This document shows positions 8,050 to 62,145 of a stretch of 64,000 nt of DNA, one piece after another (position 1 is the stretch's first letter; each line of letters starts with the position of its first letter). Source of the stretch: Eledone cirrhosa (lineage: Eukaryota). The notes under the pieces were generated by a model, which saw only the letters and a program-made list of their open reading frames with translations, made no database searches and had not been told where the DNA came from. Location of the stretch: contig OZ024740.1 of the NCBI GenBank assembly GCA_964016885.1, positions 196,230,001 through 196,294,000 on the forward strand, read 5' to 3'. The position numbers and the translations under genes are program-made.

Positions 8050-8274
8050 TATATATATATTTATATATATATATGTGTGTGTGTGTGTACGTATGCATAC
8101 TTACCTTTATGAATCAGCTGTGCTAGAGCGAGAAATAAAATTCTTATTTCATTTTTAATATTCGGCAAAGCCAATCGCAACTCGCTCGTTATGCAAATGA
8201 GGCTACTCAGCCGATGTATACTTAAGAAAATACTGTCTATTTTCAACCGTTCAACACATTGGCAGAGAGGTATA

Positions 8275-8315
8275 TAGTCCTGATGAAGTGTAATGACCCA
8301 GAAACATGTTGATTG
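8275..8315 (+). ncRNA. Hammerhead ribozyme motif (diverged relative of the 36-kb element)
   Basis: UAGUC CUGAUGA A GUGU-AAUG-ACCC A GAAA CAU GUU| GAUUG. Palindromic AACAUGUU; one mismatch in stem II; outer stem GUUCAACAC/GUGUUGAAC. Confidence 0.7.
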
Positions 8316-8516
8316 TTCCTCAAAGCCAGTGTTGAACAAACAGATGACGGCTGGTCACCGGCACAGCACAGCCTTTAATCGGGCTCGTTTCGATAATGTT
8401 CGATATAACCCATACGTACATATGTATATATATAGTTAAATATTAGACAGGAACAAAAAACAGAAAGGCAGCACAAATAGTAGTTTATTAGGTTCACGCT
8501 TTTGAGAGTGGGGGAG

Positions 8517-8644
<128 letters not shown>

Positions 8645-9314
8645 TATGCATACTTACTTCTATTCATCAGCTGTGCTAGAGTGAGAAATAAAATTCTTAT
8701 TTTAATTTTATATATATGTAAAATCCCATTATAACGATTTTTTAAATACCTCGTGAAGTTCGTCATAGCGGAATTTCAGTGTGCGTGTGCGTGTGTCTCT
8801 CTCGTATATTTATGTGTCGTATATTTATTTATATCTATTTAAGTATTACAAATCTAAACAATTTCAACGTCAATCCTATTTACCAATAGAAGGAAATACT
8901 TGAAGCCGATTCTTAGAAATAGACTAATTTATTTTTATTTTACACTCCTTCAGACTGTAAAATAAAACCACACACATAATAGAATTCAAACACATGAGAA
9001 TATATATATCTACGTTTCTTGATAACCTCATTCCCTCACAAACAAAGTCGTAACAGTAATTTGTTATTCCCTCTTTTTAATATCATTGGCTCTTTATCCT
9101 TAGGTCAAAAAAAGAAAAAAAGAAAAAGAGTTGTTTTACTTCGGTGACATGCCTGAAAATATACTTTGGCGCTTTCCTTTTCACATTTTCAAATCTCCAC
9201 TAACTGAGAATTATATTAAACTAGCAGAGCTACCCGGCGTTGCCCGGTATAACTCTCAATAGAGTAGTCGTTCAAATGAACCGAAAGACTTCCGTTAAAC
9301 ACGACTATAGAAGT

Positions 9315-9720: not shown

Positions 9721-12700
9721 ACGCCACTTTGGTGTGTCGTATTTGCTTTGCTTGTTATTTGAGATTGTAACCTAGAAAAGCATGTAACAGTCGGTGGCCA
9801 CAAAAACGGCCTTGGCAAGATCACGGTGGTATGTCAAAAAAATGTGTAAATAAGATGTAGGGAAAAGTAGATTAATTAGGTTAAAACTACGGAATATCGA
9901 TAGCGAAGCGTAATAGCAACATATAAATGTGGAAAACGAAGACATTGAACATTTATAACGTATAGCAAAAGCAGCCTCAGAGGCGTACGTGGTATTGTCA
10001 AAAGGACAAAAATAGCACACGGATACAGCAAATGTAAGCACTTATACCAAAAAAAAAAAAACACTGATTACTTGTTGGCGGATGGAGTGCCTACAAAACT
10101 TCCTTATAGACTATATTTTGGGTTTTCTCGCGAATTGCAAAAGCAAATAGGTTATGTCAGCTCCCCTCTAGAGAGCAGTCAACATATAGTTGACCATGGG
10201 AGAAGCACGGTTCTTCTAAATTAAGCCTTACGACCGTCAGCATTTGACCCTGTGATTTGTTAATCGACATGGCGAAACTGAGCCGGAGAGGGAATTGCAG
10301 TCTTCTGAATGTGAAAGGAATGTCTTTACCAGATGGAATGAGAGGTATCCTTGGTATGAAGACAGTATCTCCCTTACCACATCCTGTAAGTATTGTTGCC
10401 TCAATAATATGAGGCTTCGCCTTTTGGACGACCAACGCGTGCCGTTGGAAAGCCTTCGGGGTTCCAAAGTCCTGAAGAGCATGACAGGGACACCTTTCTT
10501 AAGTCGCAGTAAGTATCCGGGAGGGTCTAGGGAGTTAAGAAATTCTGTGGGGGTAATTAACAACTTCGTCCGGATCAGCCATAGAGTCAAGGGACTTGTA
10601 GACGTGCAGGTTTCTAGGCAAGCACAGCATGAGCTGTTCATTGATGCTTCCAACTATGTGGTTTTTCGAAGCCAATATTGCGCGTTCACACAACCACTCT
10701 TGATTTATGTAGTTCTCCTCAAGATTAGGAAAAGCAGACGTCCGTAACTCAGCAATTGACTTAACGCATCTGCAAATCCCTGTGAGGTCCGCTGCACCAT
10801 CTCCGTCGAGTGGGACTTTGCCATCTCCCAATGAGAAAATGGCAGCAGCAAAACCCGCTGATGTCTCATCACCTTGCAGTTGTGCTCTCGTTTGTTGTAA
10901 GCGTCAACTTTCTTACATAACGCCAAAGTGGGGAGGCCTTAAGGCATGCACCAACCTCATCAGCCCACATACTTTTTGGGATTACAGGCAGAGTCTGTCG
11001 GAAGTCCCCAGATAACAGGAAAGTGACACCTCCTCTTGACAGTCCCTGATGTCTCTGAGTGACCGGTCTAATGCCTCGAAAGCCGCCTTGTGGGCCATTG
11101 TGCATTCGTCTCAAACAATTAGTAGGCAGCGCTTTAACACCAGTGATTTTCCAGAAGACTTGCTGATGTTGCACGTGGGTGTCTCAGATGATGCCACGTT
11201 GAGAGGAAGACTGAAGACAGAATGGGCTGTCCTGCCACCAGGCAGCAAAGTTGCTGCAATGCCGGAAGAAGCCACAGCCAATGCGATGTTTCCATGTTGC
11301 ATCACTGCAGCGAGTAAAAGTTTGATTACAAATGTTTTGCCCGTGCCTCCAGATGCGTCCAGCAAGAATAAACCCCCTCCCCGATTACGGATGGAATCAA
11401 CGACAATGTTGTAGGCTTGTTTTTGATCCATTAGAAGTTTTGGTTCATTTTTTTCAACATACCTTTTGAGTTCGTCAACATCATATGATGTTTCACGTAT
11501 AATGTCGTTGGGAATGTCAGATGGCGCATCTCGAAGTGTTTGCGGAAGCCCATATTTCTCCAAGACATCTCCGTCCATTGAAGCCACTCTGTCTTCAATA
11601 TTGATCAGAGTTCTGTTATATATAGCGTCTGAAAAGCCGACATCTAAGTTTTGATATTGCAATTGAGCGAGATGCCTATATTCATCTGCGAAATCATCTT
11701 TAAACTTTTGCCATAAAGAGTAAGGATCGCTCAATTCACAGACGTGCAAGAGGATAGCAAAAAAAGTGCCCTTAGACTACGGGATGATTGTGAGATCGCA
11801 GCTTCTGTCAAGGTTGCATCCCATTGTGCGTCATCTTCTAAAAGTCCATGCCTCGAGCAGGCTTCCCTGTACGTTCCGCAGGCGTATCCAGTGACGGTTC
11901 TCAGATGAGTGAAGCTGGTCGGCCCTCTTACCTCATGAAGCAGAAGTCGCAGGTAGAAGCATTCGTGTTGGGTAGGGTGGACCGTATAAACTCGCCCAAG
12001 GCAATTGTCGAATTTGATGCCTGGATGTCCAACCACCTCTTGCCCTACCTTCTTTCGTAGTCATTCTGTCCAGTTCCATGTATAGTAAGACGGTATTTCA
12101 GAATACAGCAGAGTTCGAGCGAAGTCGTCGTGTTGACAAAGTTTGAAAAAAGCGGTGAGTGTAGTTTCCTTTGGTGAAATCGCTAGCTGAGCAGCCGTAG
12201 CATCGTTGAAATACACCCGTCGACCGTTTTCAAGGTGAACGGCAAGTTGTTTAATGACGGGGTGTCGTTGGTGCAGTGGGAAGCCAAAAATCCGCCAAAA
12301 GGCTTCATTGCTGCTAATGTATCGGCCTGCTTGGTAGTCAGATACCTCGTCTCTACTGTTTTCATGATGAAGACCAAAGACGGCAGCATCCGATCCCTTG
12401 TTTACATACTTACAAACGTATTTAATTGATTTTAGTGAGTTGCAAAATTCGACGTTTATATGGGCGTTGAACGCTTCCAAGAGGAGGGGGAAATATGACA
12501 CTAACCAGCTGTTGTCGATTTCGCGTTCGCCAACTTTTGCTGTGAACCCACCGTCTTCAGGTCTCCTGCGCCTATACAACGGATATTCGGTCACCACCAA
12601 TCTGTGTTTCCTGTAAAAACGGCCTGTATGCAAAAACGGCGTGTATGCACTGGGACTTCATATTGAGTCCATGTCTGCAAGGACCATGGACCAAAAGTTT

Positions 12701-13774
12701 CTTTTGATTTAATTTAATGAACCATAATCTCTCGGACTCCATTTTAACGGCCATATCAACAGTAAATTGTTGGAAAAGGTCTCGAGAACGGTGTTGATGG
12801 TTGAATGAATTGTCCCTTACCAAAAATCGGAAAGCGTAGAAATCCATGCAGGTGACAGTTTTGCTAAGATGTGACTCGCCATTGCCTGTTGAATGTTGAG
12901 GAATGCCGAAATGGTATCCATCCTTGCCGTTGACAAATAGCAATGGATACTGGAGTGCATCGTAGGACCTGTGTGTCTCATTGATATGCTGTAATGTGCT
13001 GTCTCGGTGCTGTTCACCACAAATAACTGCAGCAATCTCATTACATGTTGGTGCGTTGAACTGACCAGCGTGTTCTCCAGAATGTATGACCACACTAAAA
13101 TTTGGGTCAGTGGCTGTTTCCAAAACGTACTTGAAACTGCGAACATAGCTGTTTTTGTCATGAAGCATTTCTTGAAGTTTTATTATGGTTTCAATGTTAA
13201 TTTTGGACGAAATAGAGTTTCACATCTCTGCCTGCTCCTGATAGTTTCCAATGAAGTGTAACTGAAGAAATTGAGGATCCTTTTCTGCCAGAGGCTGAAT
13301 AGACCCAATCAAGTGGTAGATCTGCCTCTGGACCTTGAAAGTTGGCATGAACCCACGTTCCGAGGCAAGCTTTGCTCCGAAGGATGTCATCTGAAACGCG
13401 GAGTTGTAGCGGCGGATATTACGCAGAAATTTCGATGATTCCTCCGTCGTGTCTGTCAAAAGGAGTTGCAATGTCTCTGGAGGGTCGTGAATAGGAGGTA
13501 GTCTAACTTTACCGTTTGAACAGCACATACCATCTCTCTCCCTTGGCCACTTTTTCGTACGACAAAACTGGCAAGTAGAGATCATTTCCCCTAATTTGAA
13601 TATCTGCATGGACGGCGTAGTCGGAGGAGGGGTCGTAGTTAAAGGCCTTCAACAACCATCGTGAATTGCAAGTCCTAGAAATGCCACGTAACGATGATCG
13701 CCGCAGTTCACTTTGCAGAAGTCGGCCACGTCGTTGCTCTATGGTCTCAGTATTTCGTGCAGCAGCAGTGGCAG

Positions 13775-14030
13775 CGGCGCCACTGCTTCGTCAAACAGCA
13801 CGTCGTCCTTCATCCTCTCGAGCGCGAGTAGCGGATGTTGCAGCGGCGTCCCTGCTTCGTCAAACGGCACATCGTCCTTCATCCTTTCGAGCGCGAACAG
13901 CGGATGTTGCAGCGGCGTCCCTGCTTCATCAAACGGCACGTCGTCCTTCATCCTCTCGAGCGCGAATAGCGGTTGTTGCAGCGGCGTCCCTGCTTCGTCG
14001 AATGGCACATCGTCCTTCATCCGCTCTTGC
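13775..14030 (-). repeat. 69-bp (23-aa) coding tandem repeat at the Helitron ORF N-terminus
   Basis: Repeat starts at 13801, 13870, 13939 and 14008. The - frame reads RSRDAAATSAxRAREDEGRRAV then ETIEQRRGRL, typical of Helitron N-terminal R/E repeats. Confidence 0.85.
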
Positions 14031-16064
14031 AGCTGCCGTTTGCACAGCATTCTGTGAGAGCCTGATCGCAGTCGCATTTACATCTTCAGTAAGACGCCTT
14101 CGCTTAGACCTACTTGCATCATAAGATAATCGACCAATGAAAGTTCTTTTCTTGGGGGGGCATTGTGTTTAGAAAATTAACCAGGGAGAACAATAAATAG
14201 TGGACAAATAACGTTTAAGTAAGCAAATCTAAACACGGATATAAATTGTGAAAAAATGTGATAAATCTATGTGGTCTGAGAAAGTGGATATGTTTTGCAA
14301 GATTTTGTGTACCAGTCAAATTTTAAGTTAGGGTCAGAAGTTGAAATGCTTTGCTGCGACCATAATATGAACTTTAAAAGTGGTCCAAGGAGGCTCACTG
14401 CCCTCCCTAGAGGGTTCCCTTGCAAAATTCAAGTGATAACGAATGTGTGGTGCTTTATCTTATGGCAGGCAATAACCATTTCATTGAGTTTTTTGTAAGA
14501 ATCAAGTATAAACTCCCAAAGTTATGGTGCTTTTTTTATTGTGGCAGTTTGAACTTTTATAGGTTAATGAATTGGGCTCATTGTCCCCGAGGGGGTCCTC
14601 TTGCTGAATTGAAATGAAAGTAAATGTGCCTCACTGTATCTTCATCTGTAGTACATGAATAACAACTAAGTCAAAATTAATTTTATTGGACTACCAATTA
14701 TCGAAGCTATGACGCTTTGCTGCATTACAATAGCCAAATTCAATAAATGACTCACCGGGGCTTATTGACCCCTGAGGGTCCCTTTGCTTGTTCCGAGTAT
14801 AGACAATGTCTTAAACATCATTTGTAGGCAATGAGTAACTAATGTATCCGGTAAAGTTAAAATCGAATGTAAACTTCAAAAGTTATCAGGTACTAATACA
14901 GTGTTAATGTGAACTTCAATAGATAAGTCGAAGGGGCTTACTGACCCCCAGGGGTCCCCTTGATAAGTTCAAGTTAAAGTTCATGTGTTCACCTTCCTTT
15001 ATAAGCCATGGGTAATCAATACGTCTCGCTTCGTGAAAACCAAATGCCAACTCAAGCAGTTATGACGTTTTGTTGCATTCATCAAGTCGGTTTACTGCCC
15101 CCCAAGGGGCCCCCTACTTGAATTTCTGCGCAAGTACATGCCTGAAAATTTATTTGTAGGCCATAAGCAAACAAAAGATTAATTTTGGTGAAGATGGGAG
15201 GCAAACTGCAAGAATTATGGGGCTTTTATGCAGTAGTACTGCTGACTCCAAGCGAGAAGCTTAAGAGGGTTATCTGCCTCTGGGGACCTCACAATCGATG
15301 TACAGAAAAATAAAATAGCCTACGACGTGTAATAGGACCTCAGAAACCTATGTATGAAATTTGGTGCAAATCGGTTGTAAAATGTAGAAATGCATGCGGT
15401 TACACAGACAGACAGACATCTGTTTTATATATAGAGATTGATATTCTTATTATGTTTTTTGTTTGTTTAGATCAGAATTTATTTGGAAATTTACAGTGAA
15501 TTTTCTGTGTATACAGCATTCCTTGTTTTAGCGTGTGATTAAAGGAGTGTGTATACCTTTATTTTAGTTTTGACCCATTTTTATATCTCTATGATATACC
15601 CCTTTGTTGATCTGTATGCATTTCTTTTCTTTTTTTAATATATATATTTGGAATATTAATAAAAACAAGGAATGAATTAAAAAAAAAATAAAGTATACAC
15701 AAAAAAAGAAGGAAATACATGAAATAAAATTTGAAAATGTCAAGCTGTATTTATTGTTTGCCGCCTTTATATATTAATCAGTTTTGATAAGGTTTAGAAC
15801 ATCCGAGTGTACGTGACTAAAGTCAGATATTTAACCAGTTACTAATGTACCCATACTAACAGAAATGAAAGAACACTGATTATGCATATAATAAATACAG
15901 TTAATTATTGCTAGGAATCTCACAAATTTGATGCACAGAAATATGATCAAAATAAAAGAAAAAGAAAGGAAAGAAAAAAACTAACTAAAACAACCATCAA
16001 TTCACCACCAAGTGAGACAATTGGCTGTACACAATAAGGGTGAACGGAAACTTTTGAGGCATGC

Positions 16065-34215: not shown

Positions 34216-35902
34216 CTCATCATTGTTTAATTCTCTGTTTTCCTTACTAGCAAGGGTTGCACACTTCATCACAGACAGGTCAGTACTTAAATTGACCCTC
34301 TGACCTCCAGGTCGACTAGGGACCCAGCATACAATCGCATGCTCCACTGAGTGCATTTTATCATGGCATCAAGAGTAGGGAAGTTGTCATGTCTTTGGCA
34401 AAGCTAAAGAGTCTTCCTTAACCTTTGTTTTACAGGTTTTCTATAGTTGAATGTCCTTCTTATCTCCAAAGACTTCACAGAGCATATTGAGAGATCGCTT
34501 ACTGTGTAGATCACCAACACTAAGGAGGTTGTCATGTCAATAACACAGCTGAAGAGCCTTTCCAACCCTTTGTTTGACAAATTTTCTATTACTGAAAGCC
34601 CTTCTTATCACTAACCACTTTAGTGTGTTACATATGTATTTACTTATTCTTTTAGCGATTTCAGTATTTCCACACAGTTTCCGGCTACCAAATTTCACTT
34701 GCAAAGCTTTAGTTAACCAGTAGTAAAAGTGTAGAAGGCATTTTCCTGAAGTGTTATGCGATGGGATCAAACTCATAATCATGTGGTTGCAAAGTGAAAA
34801 AGAAAGAGGCAATGGTACCCCAATGGTACTTAAACACATTGGAAAGGCTCTGGATGCAACAATTTAAAAATCAGCCTCAATTAGATTTGATCTCAGAACA
34901 TGGATATATACTACTAGCAGCAGTACCCAGCGTTGCCTGGGTAGGTAAAATAATATCTGCTTTGATGAAAAGGTGTTGATCTTAGCGACTGCGTCTCGAT
35001 GACTCATCTATGGCTACACACAGGCCATGCGGGGGAGGGTGGTGATGACCTCTATTACTGAGAGACGCGGGTGACTGACGAAGGGGCATGCTGGGGGAGG
35101 GAGTTTCGAATTTGAACGAAATCGGTTGAAAAATGTGGGAGCCAGAGCCGAAAAGGCGGAAATTTGAGCGAAAAGGTGGTATTTTGGAATATTTAAGTGG
35201 CTGCCACGCCGTTCCTGAACAAAAAATCCAAAATGTAAAGCCACTTTAAGACGTGAAATAATCAGATCTAGCGTAGTGTAAAATTTGAACAAAGTAGGTT
35301 GATTAATATGGGAGCTAGAGCTGAAAAAGTGGAAATTTGAGTCTAAAAGTGATATTTTTGAATATTTAAGCAGCTGCCACGCCGTCCCTGAAGAACAAAT
35401 ACAAAATATAAAGCCATTACAGGATGTACAATGATAAATTCTATTTTGCTTTAAAATTTGAACGAAATCGGTGGCAAAATGTGGGAGCTAGAGCCAAAAA
35501 TCTTATTTTTCGATACCTAAAAAAAGGTGACTCCCCCTATCGATTTTTATCTGCAGAATGACCCCGGAATAAAAACAACGATACGCTGATGTATAGAAAA
35601 CACTCCCCGATGACTAATCTATGAGCCTGTAAAGTTTCATGAAAATCGGTCGTAAGATGTAGGCTCCTATAGGTAATACACAGACACACACGCACATACT
35701 TAATTTTGTATATATACAGATAAAGCATGTGTTCAAACATATGCTGTCTTAGCCAAGTCAAATGCCCTTCTATACGCACATAAGATTAAAAATAGAATTT
35801 TCCAAATGTTTTTCCTCTAAGTACCATTTAATAGTAGAAATAAAATCTTAAGCTTTCATAATAAATTTTTGTAAACAGAGATGATAAAGATTACAAACTT
35901 AC

Positions 35903-36001
35903 CATTGATGCTAGACCTCCAGTCCCTTTTACTGAAAATGAACTACTGCTTGATTCAAAGGCTGAATGGGTAACATATTTTCCTGGCCCAGGAATATCAT
36001 T
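35903..36001 (-). CDS. STPG1: STPG1-like exon 3 (NDIPGPGKYVTHSAFESSSSSFSVKGTGGLASM)
   Basis: PGPGxY SHIPPO motif, matching STPG1 NDIPGPGFY...SKKGT...SM. 99 nt, phase 0/0, ATG|GTAAGT donor. Confidence 0.9.
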
Positions 36002-36346
36002 CTGTTCAACAGAAAATGTTACAATATTCAGGAGGATATTCATATATCAAATTTCTGGGCTCAAGTCAGATCAATGTTGATTTAGTTTTTTATGCAATTA
36101 GATTTTCTCTTTGTGTTATTAGTTATTCCAACGAATAACCAACTGAAATGCTTGAGCCAACACAACACAATATACTAACCATGGTCTCAGTCACCTCAAG
36201 GAGATTGTCAAATATGTTGAGATTAATGAGAAATAATAAAACACATGTAACATATTTAGTCTTTCTGTCAAAACTATTTAAGATTAACTCAGCCGTTAAT
36301 ATGCATAAGGTAAGTATATACGTTCAACAATCTGGCAGGAAGGTAT

Positions 36347-36389
36347 ACGTTGCTGACGATAGCTAACAAGCTTGAAACTAGTACAGCGT
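36347..36389 (+). ncRNA. Minimal type I hammerhead ribozyme, copy 1
   Basis: ACGUUG CUGACGA U AGCU-AACA-AGCU U GAAA CUA GUA| CAGCGU: full core, 4-bp stem II, palindromic stem III (ACUAGU), stem I ACGUUG/CAGCGU. Confidence 0.85.
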
Positions 36390-36768
36390 TCCTTTGTCAG
36401 TGTTGAACAAACGAGCAACGGTGGTTGCTAGACACTACGGCTTAATACGGGATGTTTGTTTACAAACACACCGAGCATTATAATAAATGTTCGGTGAATC
36501 CATACGTGCATATATATATGTGTGCATGTATGTATATATATATATACATACTACTGTACGTCGGTATACATATATGTATGTACGTGTACATACTTATATT
36601 TAAGTAACAGCCGTACTAAGAGTGGGAAATGAAATATCGTTTCATTTTTTCCGTTTATCGTTTTCGGTGCACCCGGCCGATTAACCCACTCGATATGCAA
36701 ATTGGGCTACTCAGCCGTTAATATGCATAAGGTAAGTATATACGTTCAACAATCTGGCAGGAAGGTAT

Positions 36769-36811
36769 ACGTTGCTGACGATAGCTAACAAGCTTGAAAC
36801 TAGTACAGCGT
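36769..36811 (+). ncRNA. Minimal type I hammerhead ribozyme, copy 2
   Basis: Identical to copy 1 and exactly 422 bp downstream. Confidence 0.85.
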
Positions 36812-37339
36812 TCCTTTGTCAGTGTTGAACAAACGAGCAACGGTGGTTGCTAGACACTACGGCTTAATACGGGATGTTTGTTTACAAACACACCGAACAT
36901 TATAATAAATGTTCGGTGAATCCATACGTGCATATATATATGTGTGCATGTATGTATATATATATATACTACTGTACGTCGGTATACATATATGTATGTA
37001 CGTGTACATACTTATATTTAAGATTAAACCCTAGTAAATACAGACTTTTTACCATAGACCAGGGCTATAGTGATTTTGAGCCTCCTTAGACTTTTTCTAG
37101 GCCTAGATCTGATTCACATGATCTCTGATTTTGACAGAGACACTTAATAAATAAGTACACAGATATATAGAATATGACATTGTTTTGACAAAGAACTATC
37201 AAAGTAAATTATACATGTGAACCTTGGGTAATACATAAATGTCACAATTATCATTTCACTTTTTTTTTTTTTTTACTGCTTAGTCAGGGATATAAGGGCA
37301 GAGCCCATGACATTTTTGAAAGCCTCTAAAACTGGTGGG

Positions 37340-57530: not shown

Positions 57531-57797
57531 CTCTCTAAGAAAGATGGGAAAATGACGAATGTTCAGGTGGAACCCCTATTACAAGAAAGCTCAAATCGTT
57601 TTGTGATGTTTCCTATCCAATATCAGGACATATGGAACATGTATAAAAAGGCTGTCGCTTCATTCTGGACAGTCGAAGAGGTTGATTTATCAAAGGATTT
57701 GGGTCATTGGGAGAAATTAAAAGCTGAAGAACAACACTTCATTTCTCATGTCTTGGCCTTTTTTGCTGCAAGTGATGGGATTGTCAATGAAAATTTG
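57531..57797 (+). CDS. RRM2: RRM2 exon 4 ([17 protein letters not shown]...[13 protein letters not shown])
   Basis: EPLL...[34 protein letters not shown] and [13 protein letters not shown] are R2 signatures. AG/GT boundaries. Confidence 0.97.
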
Positions 57798-58429
57798 GTA
57801 AGATGTACTTCTATCTTGTAGGGCATCATTTTTTATACAAGGTCACTTTTTAGTTAGCTGTGAAATTTGAAATCCAATCAGAATTATTAATGAAGTGGGC
57901 GCTCAGATTTTCAGTCTCTTTACAACTCATTAGGTTATTCTGTACTGTCATGCCCAAAAATATTAAATCTAAATCAATAAAAATATAAACAAGATTGATT
58001 TAAAGGTGGTTTATCAGAACAGGTATATTGATAGATGGGCATTAATGATTTGTTCAATGTGAAATATGTTGAATGAGAGCTTAATTTTATCATGTAAGCA
58101 AATGTTGACTTGCTTTAGACAGAAATGAGTTGGCAGATATATCTAAAAGTTTTATCAAAAGATGAGCTGTTTTTAGTTGTACATATTTCCCCTCACATCA
58201 AAATGGTATACTGTTTCTGTAAAATGTTTTGGATTTTGAAGAAGTCGATATGAAGAAATACTGTTGACATGAGTTGGTGATTGGTTTTTAGTTAGCTATG
58301 CTGATCTTGTCACAAGGTTGGGTGTTAAGTCTGAAGAGACATAAGACGTGTGGATTGTATATAAAAAAAAAAATTTTCAAACCCCTTTAATTGATCTATA
58401 ATTCTTTGTTTTTGAACTGATTTTCGTAG

Positions 58430-58563
58430 GTTGAGCGGTTCTATCAAGAGATCCAAGTCTCCGAAGCACGTTCTTTTTATGCATTCCAAATTGCGATTGA
58501 AAACATTCATTCTGAAATGTACAGTCTCCTTATTGATACCTACATTAAAGACTTTAAACAGCG
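58430..58563 (+). CDS. RRM2: RRM2 exon 5 ([45 protein letters not shown])
   Basis: ENIHSEMYS carries the iron ligands and radical tyrosine. 134 nt, phase 0 to 2, canonical splice sites. Confidence 0.97.
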
Positions 58564-58828
58564 GTATGTGTGATAAAGCATTTCTTCATTTTATTTTTGA
58601 AATCAGGGTGGTGGATTGGCAGAACTGTTAGACTGTCTGACTAAATGCTTTGTATTTTAGTTATGGCCTTGTACTACCAAAGTTAATTTTGCCTCATTCT
58701 TTTGGGGTTGGTAAAATAAAGTACCTGTCTCAATTTAATTGATTTTGCCCTCTACCCCAAAATTACTGTCCTTATGTCAAATTAGAAACTATTATTATCT
58801 TGCAACTTGAACTAAATATATAATTTCT

Positions 58829-59825
58829 TTAACCCTTTTGTGTTCAAACCGTCCAAAATTATTTCCCCTTCATTTGTTCAAACCCCCCGAAAACACCTAC
58901 ACTAAAAAATTGTTCTAAAAATAAACAAACCATCATCAAAATCTCAATTCTAGACTGCTGCGAGATTAGGCCCTTACTGCGAAAATTAACACTTAACAAC
59001 TTAAAACAACACGTGTTTTTTTAACTTTGAAAGTAGAACAAATTTTTTTAGTATCAACATGGCATCAACGACATTCAAAATAAACAAACAAACGATAATA
59101 TTAGTGATTTATCTTCAAATGAATCTGAATGTTTATATTTCTGAAATTTCGTCCGACGAGGATTGTTATTTTGAAAGTGAAAACTAAGCAGATCTCCAGG
59201 ACACCATTGAAAATATTTCAGCAACATGGTCGAAAAATACCACACCAATTACATGTTCCTGATTTTGTTGAAAATACTGGTCCACAACATAATTACCTCT
59301 CGATGCTAAAGCACTGGATTATTTCTTTTTGTTTTTACCACAAACTTTCTCCAAAGTTGTGGCAGAAGAGATTAATCAATATGCCCAACAACAACATTTC
59401 AAATCGAGGAAAACCCGATCTGTTTGGCGACCGACATGCTGCAGAAATGTAAGCATTTTTTACCATAAATATTATGGTCGGTATAAAACAATTTCCAAGA
59501 CTGGAATTACTGGAACACTGATATAAAGTTTAGTGATTCTTATATATCAAGTATTATGCCGAAAACGACGTATTTAAAATTAAACCAGTATTTGCACCTA
59601 GTTGATACTTCAAATGCCCCTATTAATTTCACCTGCTCATAAAAGTCAAATTTAACCAAAAAAATCAGGTAAAATTATATAATTGTAAAATTTCAAGCCT
59701 GCACATAGAACATTAAGAAAATTACAAACAAATAAAATTGATAACCCTCTTGAGTATGATTAACTGAAAATAATGCGAACAGATAAGCATGACATTTGAA
59801 AATAATGTGAATGTTAAAGGGTTAA
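58829..59825 (+). mobile_element. piggyBac deletion derivative in RRM2 intron 5
   Basis: TTAA-CCCTTT...AAAGGG-TTAA ends. The decayed interior reads F..F....VVAEEINQYAQQ, W.PT, NYW.T, SSIMPK..YLKLNQYLHLVD (PGBD-like). Confidence 0.8.
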
Positions 59826-59898
59826 ACCATAGTTGTAGTTTTGTTGACTTGGTGGTCAGATTTTGGCATATATCATTCATTATGTTTTTTCCAAATAG

Positions 59899-60124
59899 GG
59901 ATCATTTGTTCAATGCCATAGAAACAATGCCGTGCATTAAAAAGAAAGCTGATTGGGCTTTGAAATGGATTTCTGAAAAGGTCCCTTATTCGGAACGTGT
60001 TGTAGCTTTTGCTGGAGTGGAAGGTATCTTCTTCTCTGGTTCTTTTGCTGCCATCTTCTGGTTGAAGAAACGTGGTATCATGCCTGGTTTAACATTCAGT
60101 AATGAATTGATCAGCAGAGACGAG
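59899..60124 (+). CDS. RRM2: RRM2 exon 6 ([12 protein letters not shown]...[10 protein letters not shown]...ELISRDE)
   Basis: [36 protein letters not shown]; phase 2 to 0; GAG|GTAGGT donor. Confidence 0.97.
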
Positions 60125-60776
60125 GTAGGTTTATATTTTAATCTTGACATTAAGAAAATTATAATTTTAACAATAATTTAACCCTGTGAGCTATGATTAT
60201 CTTTTCAGTTGCTGACTACTCCCCATATTGGAATATTTTTTAGTTTACAAGCAGTATAAATGAGAAACATTTTAATGTGAAAAATTTAGAAAGAAAATAT
60301 GCATTGCCTTTTCTTTCTGAAAGTTGTTAACTTCTACTGTGACTTCACTGTCATCAAGATACGAGGGGAGAGGGAATCTGAAAAGATGTAAAATCAAATT
60401 TCTAACCTTTTTGATTTATGAATATAATATCAGAAGTGTAGTTCATATATTTAAAAAAATATGTATGCTGCTTTTTTAATCAAGTTACATAAACTATGAA
60501 TCTACAAGCAAGTATTTCTATAAGAAAACATACATCATTGACATGGTTTTGTGTGTGTGAAAACATACATCATTGACATGGTTTTGTGTGTGTGAAAAGA
60601 TATATATATATATTATATCACCAAGTATGTTTGGGGCTAATTGTTAGTTAAAATAGATTTAGATTGTACAAAATTTCAATGAAGGGAATATTTATAAGGA
60701 ACAATTTATCAGTGGAATGTGCAAATATATTTTTTCTTTCCTGTATCTTGATATTTATTTTTTTCTATATTTACAG

Positions 60777-60995
60777 GGTCTCCACACAGACTTTGCCTGT
60801 CTTATGTTCAAACACTTATCTCATCCACCATCTCAGGATAGAGTGTATGAGATCATTACTGATGCCGTTAAAATTGAACAAGAATTCCTTACAGAAGCTC
60901 TTCCTTGTAATTTAATTGGAATGAATTGTGAACTGATGAAACGTTACATTGAATTTGTTGCTGACAGACTTCTTGTTGAACTCAACTGTAAGAAG
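60777..60995 (+). CDS. RRM2: RRM2 exon 7 (GLHTDFACL...[17 protein letters not shown])
   Basis: Completes the DEGLH iron-binding motif; 219 nt, phase 0/0; AAG|GTAAG donor. Confidence 0.97.
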
Positions 60996-61995
60996 GTAAG
61001 CTAGCTCTGAGATATTTGCCCTCTGTTCTCCAGATTAATCCCAGTATGGAGTGGTTGTAGTGTTGGTGGTGATTTGAAATTGCATTCTTTAGTCTTTACA
61101 TTTTTCTTTGTACATAATGGATGAGATGAAAAGGTATTGAGTTAAGTAACGAGTAGAGTCATGGATTTAGTGATAATTATATTGGAGAAATGTTATGAAA
61201 ACCTAACTACTGTATACTATAGGCATTTCACTACTGGATAAGTAATGCCTTTTTTTTTTTTTTTTCACCTAGTAACTTAAAAGTTGATTTGCATGAAAAA
61301 ATTCTCAACACAATGGTATTCAAAATGTCTAGTCAGAGCATATTAAAACTTAATTCATTGTCTGGTTTAATACCACCACTTAGATGTCTTTAGCAGTTTA
61401 TTCTGTATTTGTGTCGGGTTTCCAGTTTGAGTATACTTTCCCTTGCAATCAAACTGGAAAAGGGTTTTGGGTATTGCCTTATTCCTCCTTGACGAAACGA
61501 GTTTACACATTCTTAAAATTATTTTATTAGTTTTGGAGGGTGTGTACAGATAGAGCTGTCTCTAGAAAAGATTTAAATTCTGGTTGGGTTTTATATGCGG
61601 ATCAAGAATCGGACCTGAGGTTGAGATTGTTACAACTGATTTTGTTTATATTTATGACTGTATAATACTTAGTATAGTTAATAGTCTTGTCGGATATATA
61701 ATAAATTACTAAGCTGATACATTGCAGTAGAAATATATAAAGAGCAAAGGATGACAGACCAGAAATCTGTTTTACCTAATATATATCAACATATTTCAGG
61801 AACACATTGATTGTTCCTTTTGTTTTGAACTGTTTTCATTTGAAAAGAGGGTATTGGCCCAGAAATATACTGGGTAAAACATTACTTTTTGTTTTATTTG
61901 CCCTTTATATATTTCTGAAATTTATCAGTTACTATAATACTTGTTGGCTCACGCATGCACAATTTTATCTTGATACTTTATATTCTCTTTTGCAG

Positions 61996-62145
61996 ATCTA
62001 TAACTCGGAGAATCCATTTGATTTCATGGAACATATCTCATTGGAAGGAAAAACTAATTTCTTTGAAAAAAGGGTTGGTGAATACCAAAAGATGGGTGTC
62101 ATGTCTGGTTCAAGTCACACATTTACACTTGATGCTGACTTCTAA
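61996..62145 (+). CDS. RRM2: RRM2 last exon ([32 protein letters not shown]...FTLDADF*)
   Basis: Ends in the R1-binding heptapeptide FTLDADF and a TAA stop. Summed CDS is 1128 nt (375 aa) and open throughout. Confidence 0.97.

Follow-up and report, generated by a model that had tools for sequence, protein, structure and literature searches.

The window analysed here, a 64,000-bp stretch of the genome of Eledone cirrhosa (contig OZ024740.1, positions 196,230,001 to 196,294,000), contains five exons of a ribonucleotide reductase small subunit gene (RRM2; 57537-62142, plus strand), for which the best named match is from Octopus vulgaris (90% identity), with 80% identity to cuttlefish. LINE-like reverse transcriptase (RT) fragments, which we take to be of the RTE/CR1 type, are common in the window, and minus-strand frames at 10200-14100 resemble what is presumably a decayed Helitron Rep-helicase. 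The feature under study is a tandem insertion (Table 1), which the initial annotation had described as bounded by a 13-bp duplication and built from about 1.7 near-identical 422-bp units. Indeed, the repeat is exact at both flanks, and the 727 bp between its two copies correspond to 1.72 units, which are identical except for one substitution (36475/36897) and 4 nt missing from the (TA)n tract of one unit. The predicted 422-nt monomer has a GC content of 38%. The insert is non-coding, its longest ATG open reading frame comprising 51 amino acids; neither the RT + GIY-YIG frame of autonomous EN+ Penelope-like elements (PLEs) nor a tRNA or tRNA-derived head was found in it, and the 422-bp array is missing from the TRF listing. 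Among the contigs from four public runs of unrecorded kind, some independently pass into (TA)n at 36658 (runs X2 and X5) and at 37017-37020 (X5 and X6); no joint that skips the insert is listed for these runs, which does not bear on an empty allele.

The insertion belongs to a large family, of which it is a young copy. It is truncated at its 5' side at unit position 326, carries no inversion and has its 3' end at the position described below as priming site 1. The first 8 of the 13 bases of the right repeat also occur as the element's own bases at 36597-36604, so that they represent a continuation of the element and thus microhomology at the right junction; judged from this sequence match, base pairing between target and RNA may have taken place during priming. 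Release of a monomer from this particular copy would need plus-strand transcription that starts upstream of the first ribozyme. In the neighbourhood, a 173-bp tandem repeat (2.3 copies, 35102-35500) lies ~780 bp to the left of the insertion, and an exon-like stretch on the minus strand (35903-36002), with splice signals and a PGPGxY motif, is ~270 bp away from it. The latter resembles proteins that we take to be of the STPG1 type, but was confirmed neither by Pfam nor by a genome search, so that an intronic position of the insertion is no more than a possibility.

Table 1. Features of the insertion and of a diverged relative, in window coordinates
Feature	Position	Strand	Basis or remark
Diverged relative (family C) with its own hammerhead core at 8280	8086..8358	+	nhmmer E=8e-32
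Left copy of the 13-bp target-site duplication	36275..36287	+	exact repeat
Retrozyme insertion, 1.72 units, 5'-truncated, ending at putative priming site 1	36288..37014	+	
Hammerhead domain 1, extended stem I	36322..36408	+	predicted cut after 36383
Domain 1, core	36353-36359	+	sequence
Domain 1, stem II	36360-36373	+	fold
Domain 1, GAAA	36374-36377	+	sequence
Domain 1, palindrome	36378-36381	+	sequence
Predicted cleavage-to-cleavage monomer, 422 nt	36384..36805	+	
Putative priming site 1 (unit position ~213) and following bases matching TA-rich targets	36587..36604	+	
The 62 nt separating the fixed 3' ends ("tail")	36597..36658	+	36658 is the end of site 2
Conserved predicted helix around site 2	36620..36691	+	
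ATGCAAAT motif	36695..36702	+	invariant in alignment A4 (8 sequences)
Hammerhead domain 2, identical to domain 1	36744..36830	+	predicted cut after 36805
Right copy of the duplication, first 8 nt continuing the element	37015..37027	+	

The hammerhead domain and its relatives

The two hammerhead cores begin at 36353 and 36775, and the GUA triplets preceding the predicted cuts end at 36383 and 36805, as had been proposed from the sequence; the long outer stem that had been drawn for each unit also folds as described. Within the full insert the predicted pair probabilities are 0.45-0.94 for stem I and 0.94-1.0 for stem II, and the monomer folds better than all of 100 shuffled sequences (z = -8.1), although a TA-rich hairpin inflates this value. 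Stem I consists of 6 bp, a bulge with invariant bases and an extension, stem II of 3 bp on a U.U, and stem III of a single base pair beneath a palindromic tetraloop, the palindrome itself covarying. At the base of stem II most family A sequences have the U.U, while family B has a G-C pair. The suggestion of a minimal, PLE-type hammerhead is not borne out, since that form combines a long helix II (7-8 bp) with a short helix I (4-5 bp) and a poorly defined loop 1 (PMC4209133), a combination that is not found here; on its predicted pairing, the ribozyme is of the canonical type I animal form. The U.U resembles that of the axolotl ribozyme HHR_Amex2, and the 1-bp stem III with its palindromic tetraloop that of HHR_Amex1, both of which cleave well only as dimers (PMC7229834). 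Because of the U.U in most family A sequences and the one-pair stem III, cleavage may be slow.

The structure is conserved in evolution. The catalytic core is invariant in all 13 sequences compared (families A, B, C and F). Of the 16 ribozyme pairs, 11 show changes on both sides in these sequences, which are kin to each other, so that a comparison with shuffles yields no probability. Pairing according to the named structure is found in 91% of 208 cells, as compared with 30-51% for slid controls; families D and E were left out of this comparison, as their lengths differ and family D was misaligned. Rfam, to which the initial annotation had pointed as a check, gave no hammerhead match in the window, neither at the gathering threshold nor among the 66 matches at E<=10; the microRNA matches correspond to the TA-rich hairpin and are all below gathering.

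In the 3.0-Gb host genome the exact 40-nt ribozyme motif occurs 1,740 times, a relaxed version of it 25,223 times and the motif of the sister family B (unit 467 bp) 6,145 times, with no occurrence of the reversed control in any of these searches. Thus a single octopod genome holds more than 30,000 hammerhead motifs, in a case where Rfam finds none in the window. The element is therefore neither single-copy nor devoid of core conservation, and the genome-wide search for further copies revealed a large, dispersed family, which, together with the covarying ribozyme stems, bears out the initial reading as a retrozyme. Natural family A cleavage-to-cleavage monomers are ~400-540 bp long (n=77), and monomers taken from 29 loci, one per locus, are 85-100% identical to the window unit. 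The family C relative within the window, which the initial annotation had overlooked, extends over 8086-8720, is interrupted, has the palindrome CATG and ends in TA repeats. Further non-coding relatives emerged from a profile search of stretches fetched from the genome (numbered with L below). A second tandem retrozyme family has a 310-bp unit (L058 8169-9704, L065 5806-7983, L134 6859-8947), shows the loop II pattern and U.U base of family A and also forms inverted arrays. Families D (L066, L109, L119, L121) and E (L102, L151, L234-L263; 1,294 pattern matches) are other non-coding hammerhead families.

The ATGCAAAT motif lies 80-100 nt upstream of the ribozyme core and may be a promoter element or part of an RNA helix. 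It is also carried by most copies of families D and E, ~70-100 nt upstream of the core, and is absent from the 160 nt upstream in the 310-bp family. A promoter of the snRNA type was considered, with newt satellite 2 as a parallel, for which no confirming passage was found in the literature. This idea was rejected, as the motif is missing from the 600 bp upstream of four out of four host U2 genes and no convincing element is common to these genes and the unit. The host has a tandem U2 snRNA array with a 2.2-kb unit at 307.35-307.45 Mb of contig C3 (L163-L172).

Inverted arms and the RNA template

Insertion footprints were scored in 107 fetched stretches, a non-random set that consists mostly of the first intact-motif matches on contig C1 and includes some family B loci picked for opposite-strand neighbours; elements shorter than 150 bp or touching the edge of a stretch were dropped. 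In the resulting table two L034 elements look like duplicates, and the L057 row merges nested elements. Half of the elements (60 of 120) carry a head-to-head inverted arm.

If cut linear monomers were the usual template, copies should often start at the cleavage site. Genome-wide junction patterns revealed 11 such starts, as compared with 12 for a control position 5 nt upstream and 36 for one 3 nt downstream, the latter pattern covering more subfamilies; at least four of the 11 are small deletions or duplications. The lack of an excess indicates that cut linear monomers are not the usual template, and that the template is continuous across the cut, being either a circle or an uncut multimer. 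Of the proposal in the initial annotation that a released 422-nt monomer is retrotransposed, copying of the linear form thus finds no support. The two arms of an element are nearer to each other than to the arms of other elements in 17 of 21 cases and no nearer than background in the other 4, while 2 more elements were too short for the comparison. In L205/206 a single variant set is seen in all 18 full units scored over both arms, and in L038 and L208 variant sets are common to both arms. By contrast, L031 and the old array L041/42 contain mixed units, which a single circle would not predict without later change.

These observations bear on the strongest competing explanation, in which the family derives from Penelope, is non-autonomous and is copied from linear RNA that spans several units and stays uncut, the hammerhead being slow or dependent on a protein. 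Uncut RNA accounts for the missing cleavage-site starts as well as circles do, could be supplied by the long genomic arrays (L041/42, L182-L213) and fits the mixed units in L031; moreover, the anole Penelope element does without ribozyme activity in vitro (PMC11167929). However, compensatory change maintains the ribozyme stems in four families, 18 identical units over both arms arise most simply from one circular monomer, and circles are abundant for the retrozymes of coral, mussel and axolotl (PMC7229834). We therefore regard copying from uncut RNA as unlikely, if still the most serious rival, and lean slightly toward a circular over an uncut multimeric template.

Two fixed 3' ends and a probable Penelope link

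The 3' ends of family A and B copies are fixed at two positions: of 180 ends scored, 68 are at site 1, 90 at site 2 and 22 elsewhere, with a distance between the sites of 62 nt in A1 and 74 nt in B. (TA)3 adjoins 143 of the 158 defined ends. In inverted elements with both ends defined, one end is at each of the two sites in 47 of 48 cases (binomial p=3e-13; A 33/34, B 14/14), the sole exception (L070) ending 8 nt past site 2; a further 12 inverted elements have an undefined end. Even among non-inverted copies a tiny arm of the other type is present in 8 of 51, and one of the same type in none. Duplications of 12-14 bp were seen at three other copies in targets that are not pure TA (L037, L176, L207), while 7 of 28 copies lack a duplication and most of the remaining ones are ambiguous within TA repeats. 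Site 2 is enclosed by the predicted helix at 36620-36691, in which 2 of 6 pairs show two-sided change (in one sequence each) and which, on this modelled fold, is a candidate protein-recognition domain.

Two fixed 3' ends, an inverted 5' copy and a bias for microsatellite targets, all of which are found in this family, characterise PLE integration, so that the guess of Penelope mobilisation in the initial annotation has gained support from the genome-wide end signature. The host genome contains long RT + GIY-YIG frames, with 10,596 GIY-YIG candidates, of which 150 were scored. One of these families (L101) encodes RT + GIY-YIG with a CxxxxCxxC linker, a feature associated with Neptune, Nematis and Naiad as well as with the targeting of TA repeats (PMC8557442). 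Its ends show the same pattern: of 38 matches, 30 stop at one of two positions that are separated by 68 nt, and (TA)n follows in nearly every case. Among seven inverted copies with both ends defined, assessed by eye, six combine the two end types and the seventh carries the same end on both arms. PLEs with a zinc-finger-like linker (L101 3809-6622, minus strand; L103, L107, L117-L119) have 3' regions without a canonical hammerhead; canonical PLE clades are said to carry one, and a related family (L104, L105, L110, L115) does.

No autonomous Penelope element with the sequence or terminus of the unit, as the initial annotation had envisaged, was encountered among ~230 fetched stretches, which cover few of the 10,596 GIY-YIG candidates. 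Copies of the family at 50 GIY-YIG loci are separate insertions only, and family E is not consistently attached to an open reading frame in 30 loci. The best-matching autonomous family has no hammerhead in its 3' region and shares with the unit one short U-rich stretch, which was picked post hoc and was equalled in 12 of 2,000 shuffles.

It is very improbable that the element is instead SINE-like and moved by an RTE/CR1-type LINE, with the TA flanks as 3' tails. The LINE-like RT fragments in the window would provide a source, and LINE insertions also show 5' truncation, duplications and inversions. In twin priming of LINEs, however, only one of the two 3' ends is fixed, the other being internal and random, so that the two fixed ends of the inverted copies largely refute this explanation. 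The same end pattern marks a GIY-YIG element of this genome. Least credible is satellite DNA spread by unequal crossing-over or extrachromosomal circles with an incidental ribozyme, since the old long arrays (L041/42) do contain repeated variant blocks, as from unequal crossing-over, but dispersed copies that share fixed 3' ends, vary at the 5' side, have 12-14-bp duplications and favour certain targets bear the marks of retrotransposition, and the RNA structure covaries, so that satellite processes are refuted as the route of dispersal and probably acted secondarily on long arrays. Taken together, the element is almost certainly of the retrozyme type and its mobilisation very probably of the Penelope type; the combined reading, that of a non-LTR retrozyme family which is predicted to self-cleave and is likely copied into TA-rich sites by a Penelope-like RT/GIY-YIG protein, we consider probable.

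Known systems and a possible route of insertion

The class of retrozymes and the idea of a Penelope partner are already known; what is new is the insertion footprint. Metazoan non-LTR retrozymes share with the present family non-coding tandem units of a few hundred bp, a GC content below 50%, one type I hammerhead per unit, a stable fold and a duplication of more than 4 bp (PMC7229834), and the short tandem units (~150-450 bp) in many dispersed copies that mark such elements are found here. The retrozymes of coral, mussel and axolotl differ in sequence and host, and the text of that paper, as far as available, mentions neither a tail nor fixed 3' ends, and neither inversions nor a preference for (TA)n targets, all of which are seen here. 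According to a 2020 review, no conserved motif points to the element that mobilises retrozymes (PMC7761336). Recently, it was argued that vertebrate retrozymes derive from PLEs and are non-autonomous (Li, Clavereau, Pollet 2026, bioRxiv 10.64898/2026.07.22.740005). That preprint reaches the same conclusion, that PLEs mobilise retrozymes, from co-occurrence and pLTR homology in 35 species, with no mollusc among the classes listed in the available part; here the argument comes from the integration footprint, and no pLTR homology was found among the ~230 fetched stretches. Of nine Xenopus retrozyme dimers, one cleaved in vitro (bioRxiv 10.64898/2026.07.22.740005).

EN+ PLEs such as Neptune, Poseidon and Naiad have in common with the family partial tandems, an inverted 5' copy, an optional tail at one end, TA-rich targets and a hammerhead upstream of two RT start sites (PMC8557442, PMC3846280, PMC11167929), but the family has no open reading frame, its ribozyme is canonical rather than minimal, and its tail measures 62-74 nt instead of 30-40 nt. 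PLE copies often have the tail at one end only, an inverted 5' copy and a (TA)n bias (PMC8557442). The one-of-each rule, counted here in 47 of 48 copies, appears as "often" or "optionally" in the accessible descriptions (PMC8557442, PMC3846280). For the anole Penelope, both target strands are cut and extended in vitro by a protein predicted to be a dimer, the tail is the span between two internal RT start sites, ribozyme mutants insert normally and uncut RNA is the main substrate; priming occurs without target homology, unlike the microhomology at the junctions here, and both strands use the same start sites (PMC11167929). As to cephalopods, a squid genome paper lists 235 Rfam hammerhead hits, and the terms "hammerhead" and "ribozyme" are absent from the main text, in its accessible part, of a 2026 Octopus vulgaris repeat annotation. 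Neither retrozymes of cephalopods nor a strict rule of one end of each type was found described in the literature searched, although supplements and paywalled papers might differ.

The following route would be compatible with these features. A plus-strand transcript would cover two or more units, the paired hammerheads, joined via the palindromic stem III, would excise the monomer, and a host ligase would circularise it. A Penelope protein would then bind the structured domain around sites 1 and 2 and nick both target strands ~12-14 bp apart, whereupon each nicked end would anneal to a short TA-like stretch of the RNA and prime cDNA synthesis, one at site 1 and the other at site 2. The resulting cDNAs, of variable length and often longer than one unit, would be joined head to head; where one cDNA was lost or tiny, a simple 5'-truncated copy as in the window would result. 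In its most specific form, a double rolling circle in which a dimeric Neptune-type Penelope enzyme starts cDNA from the two strands of a TA-rich target, each at a different, obligatory site of a single retrozyme RNA circle, this model is put forward tentatively, as a possible rather than the expected mechanism.

The case for a Penelope-retrozyme partnership in animals has so far been built mainly on co-occurrence and on a ribozyme type common to both, to which homology of the termini has recently been added; in the present family it is the copies that bear the Penelope integration footprint. The 47/48 rule leads to a prediction for Penelope tails and inverted ends in general, namely that both start sites are used in every insertion, with each target strand primed at a different one. 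In vitro tests are feasible, since the sites on the 422-nt RNA are mapped and the genome supplies young copies by the thousand as well as Penelope candidates with long ORFs. If the double rolling circle is true, a single step would account for the Penelope tail, the head-to-head inversion and the tandem arrays of retrozymes, and autonomous elements that are themselves free of hammerheads would spread hammerhead-bearing circles in trans.
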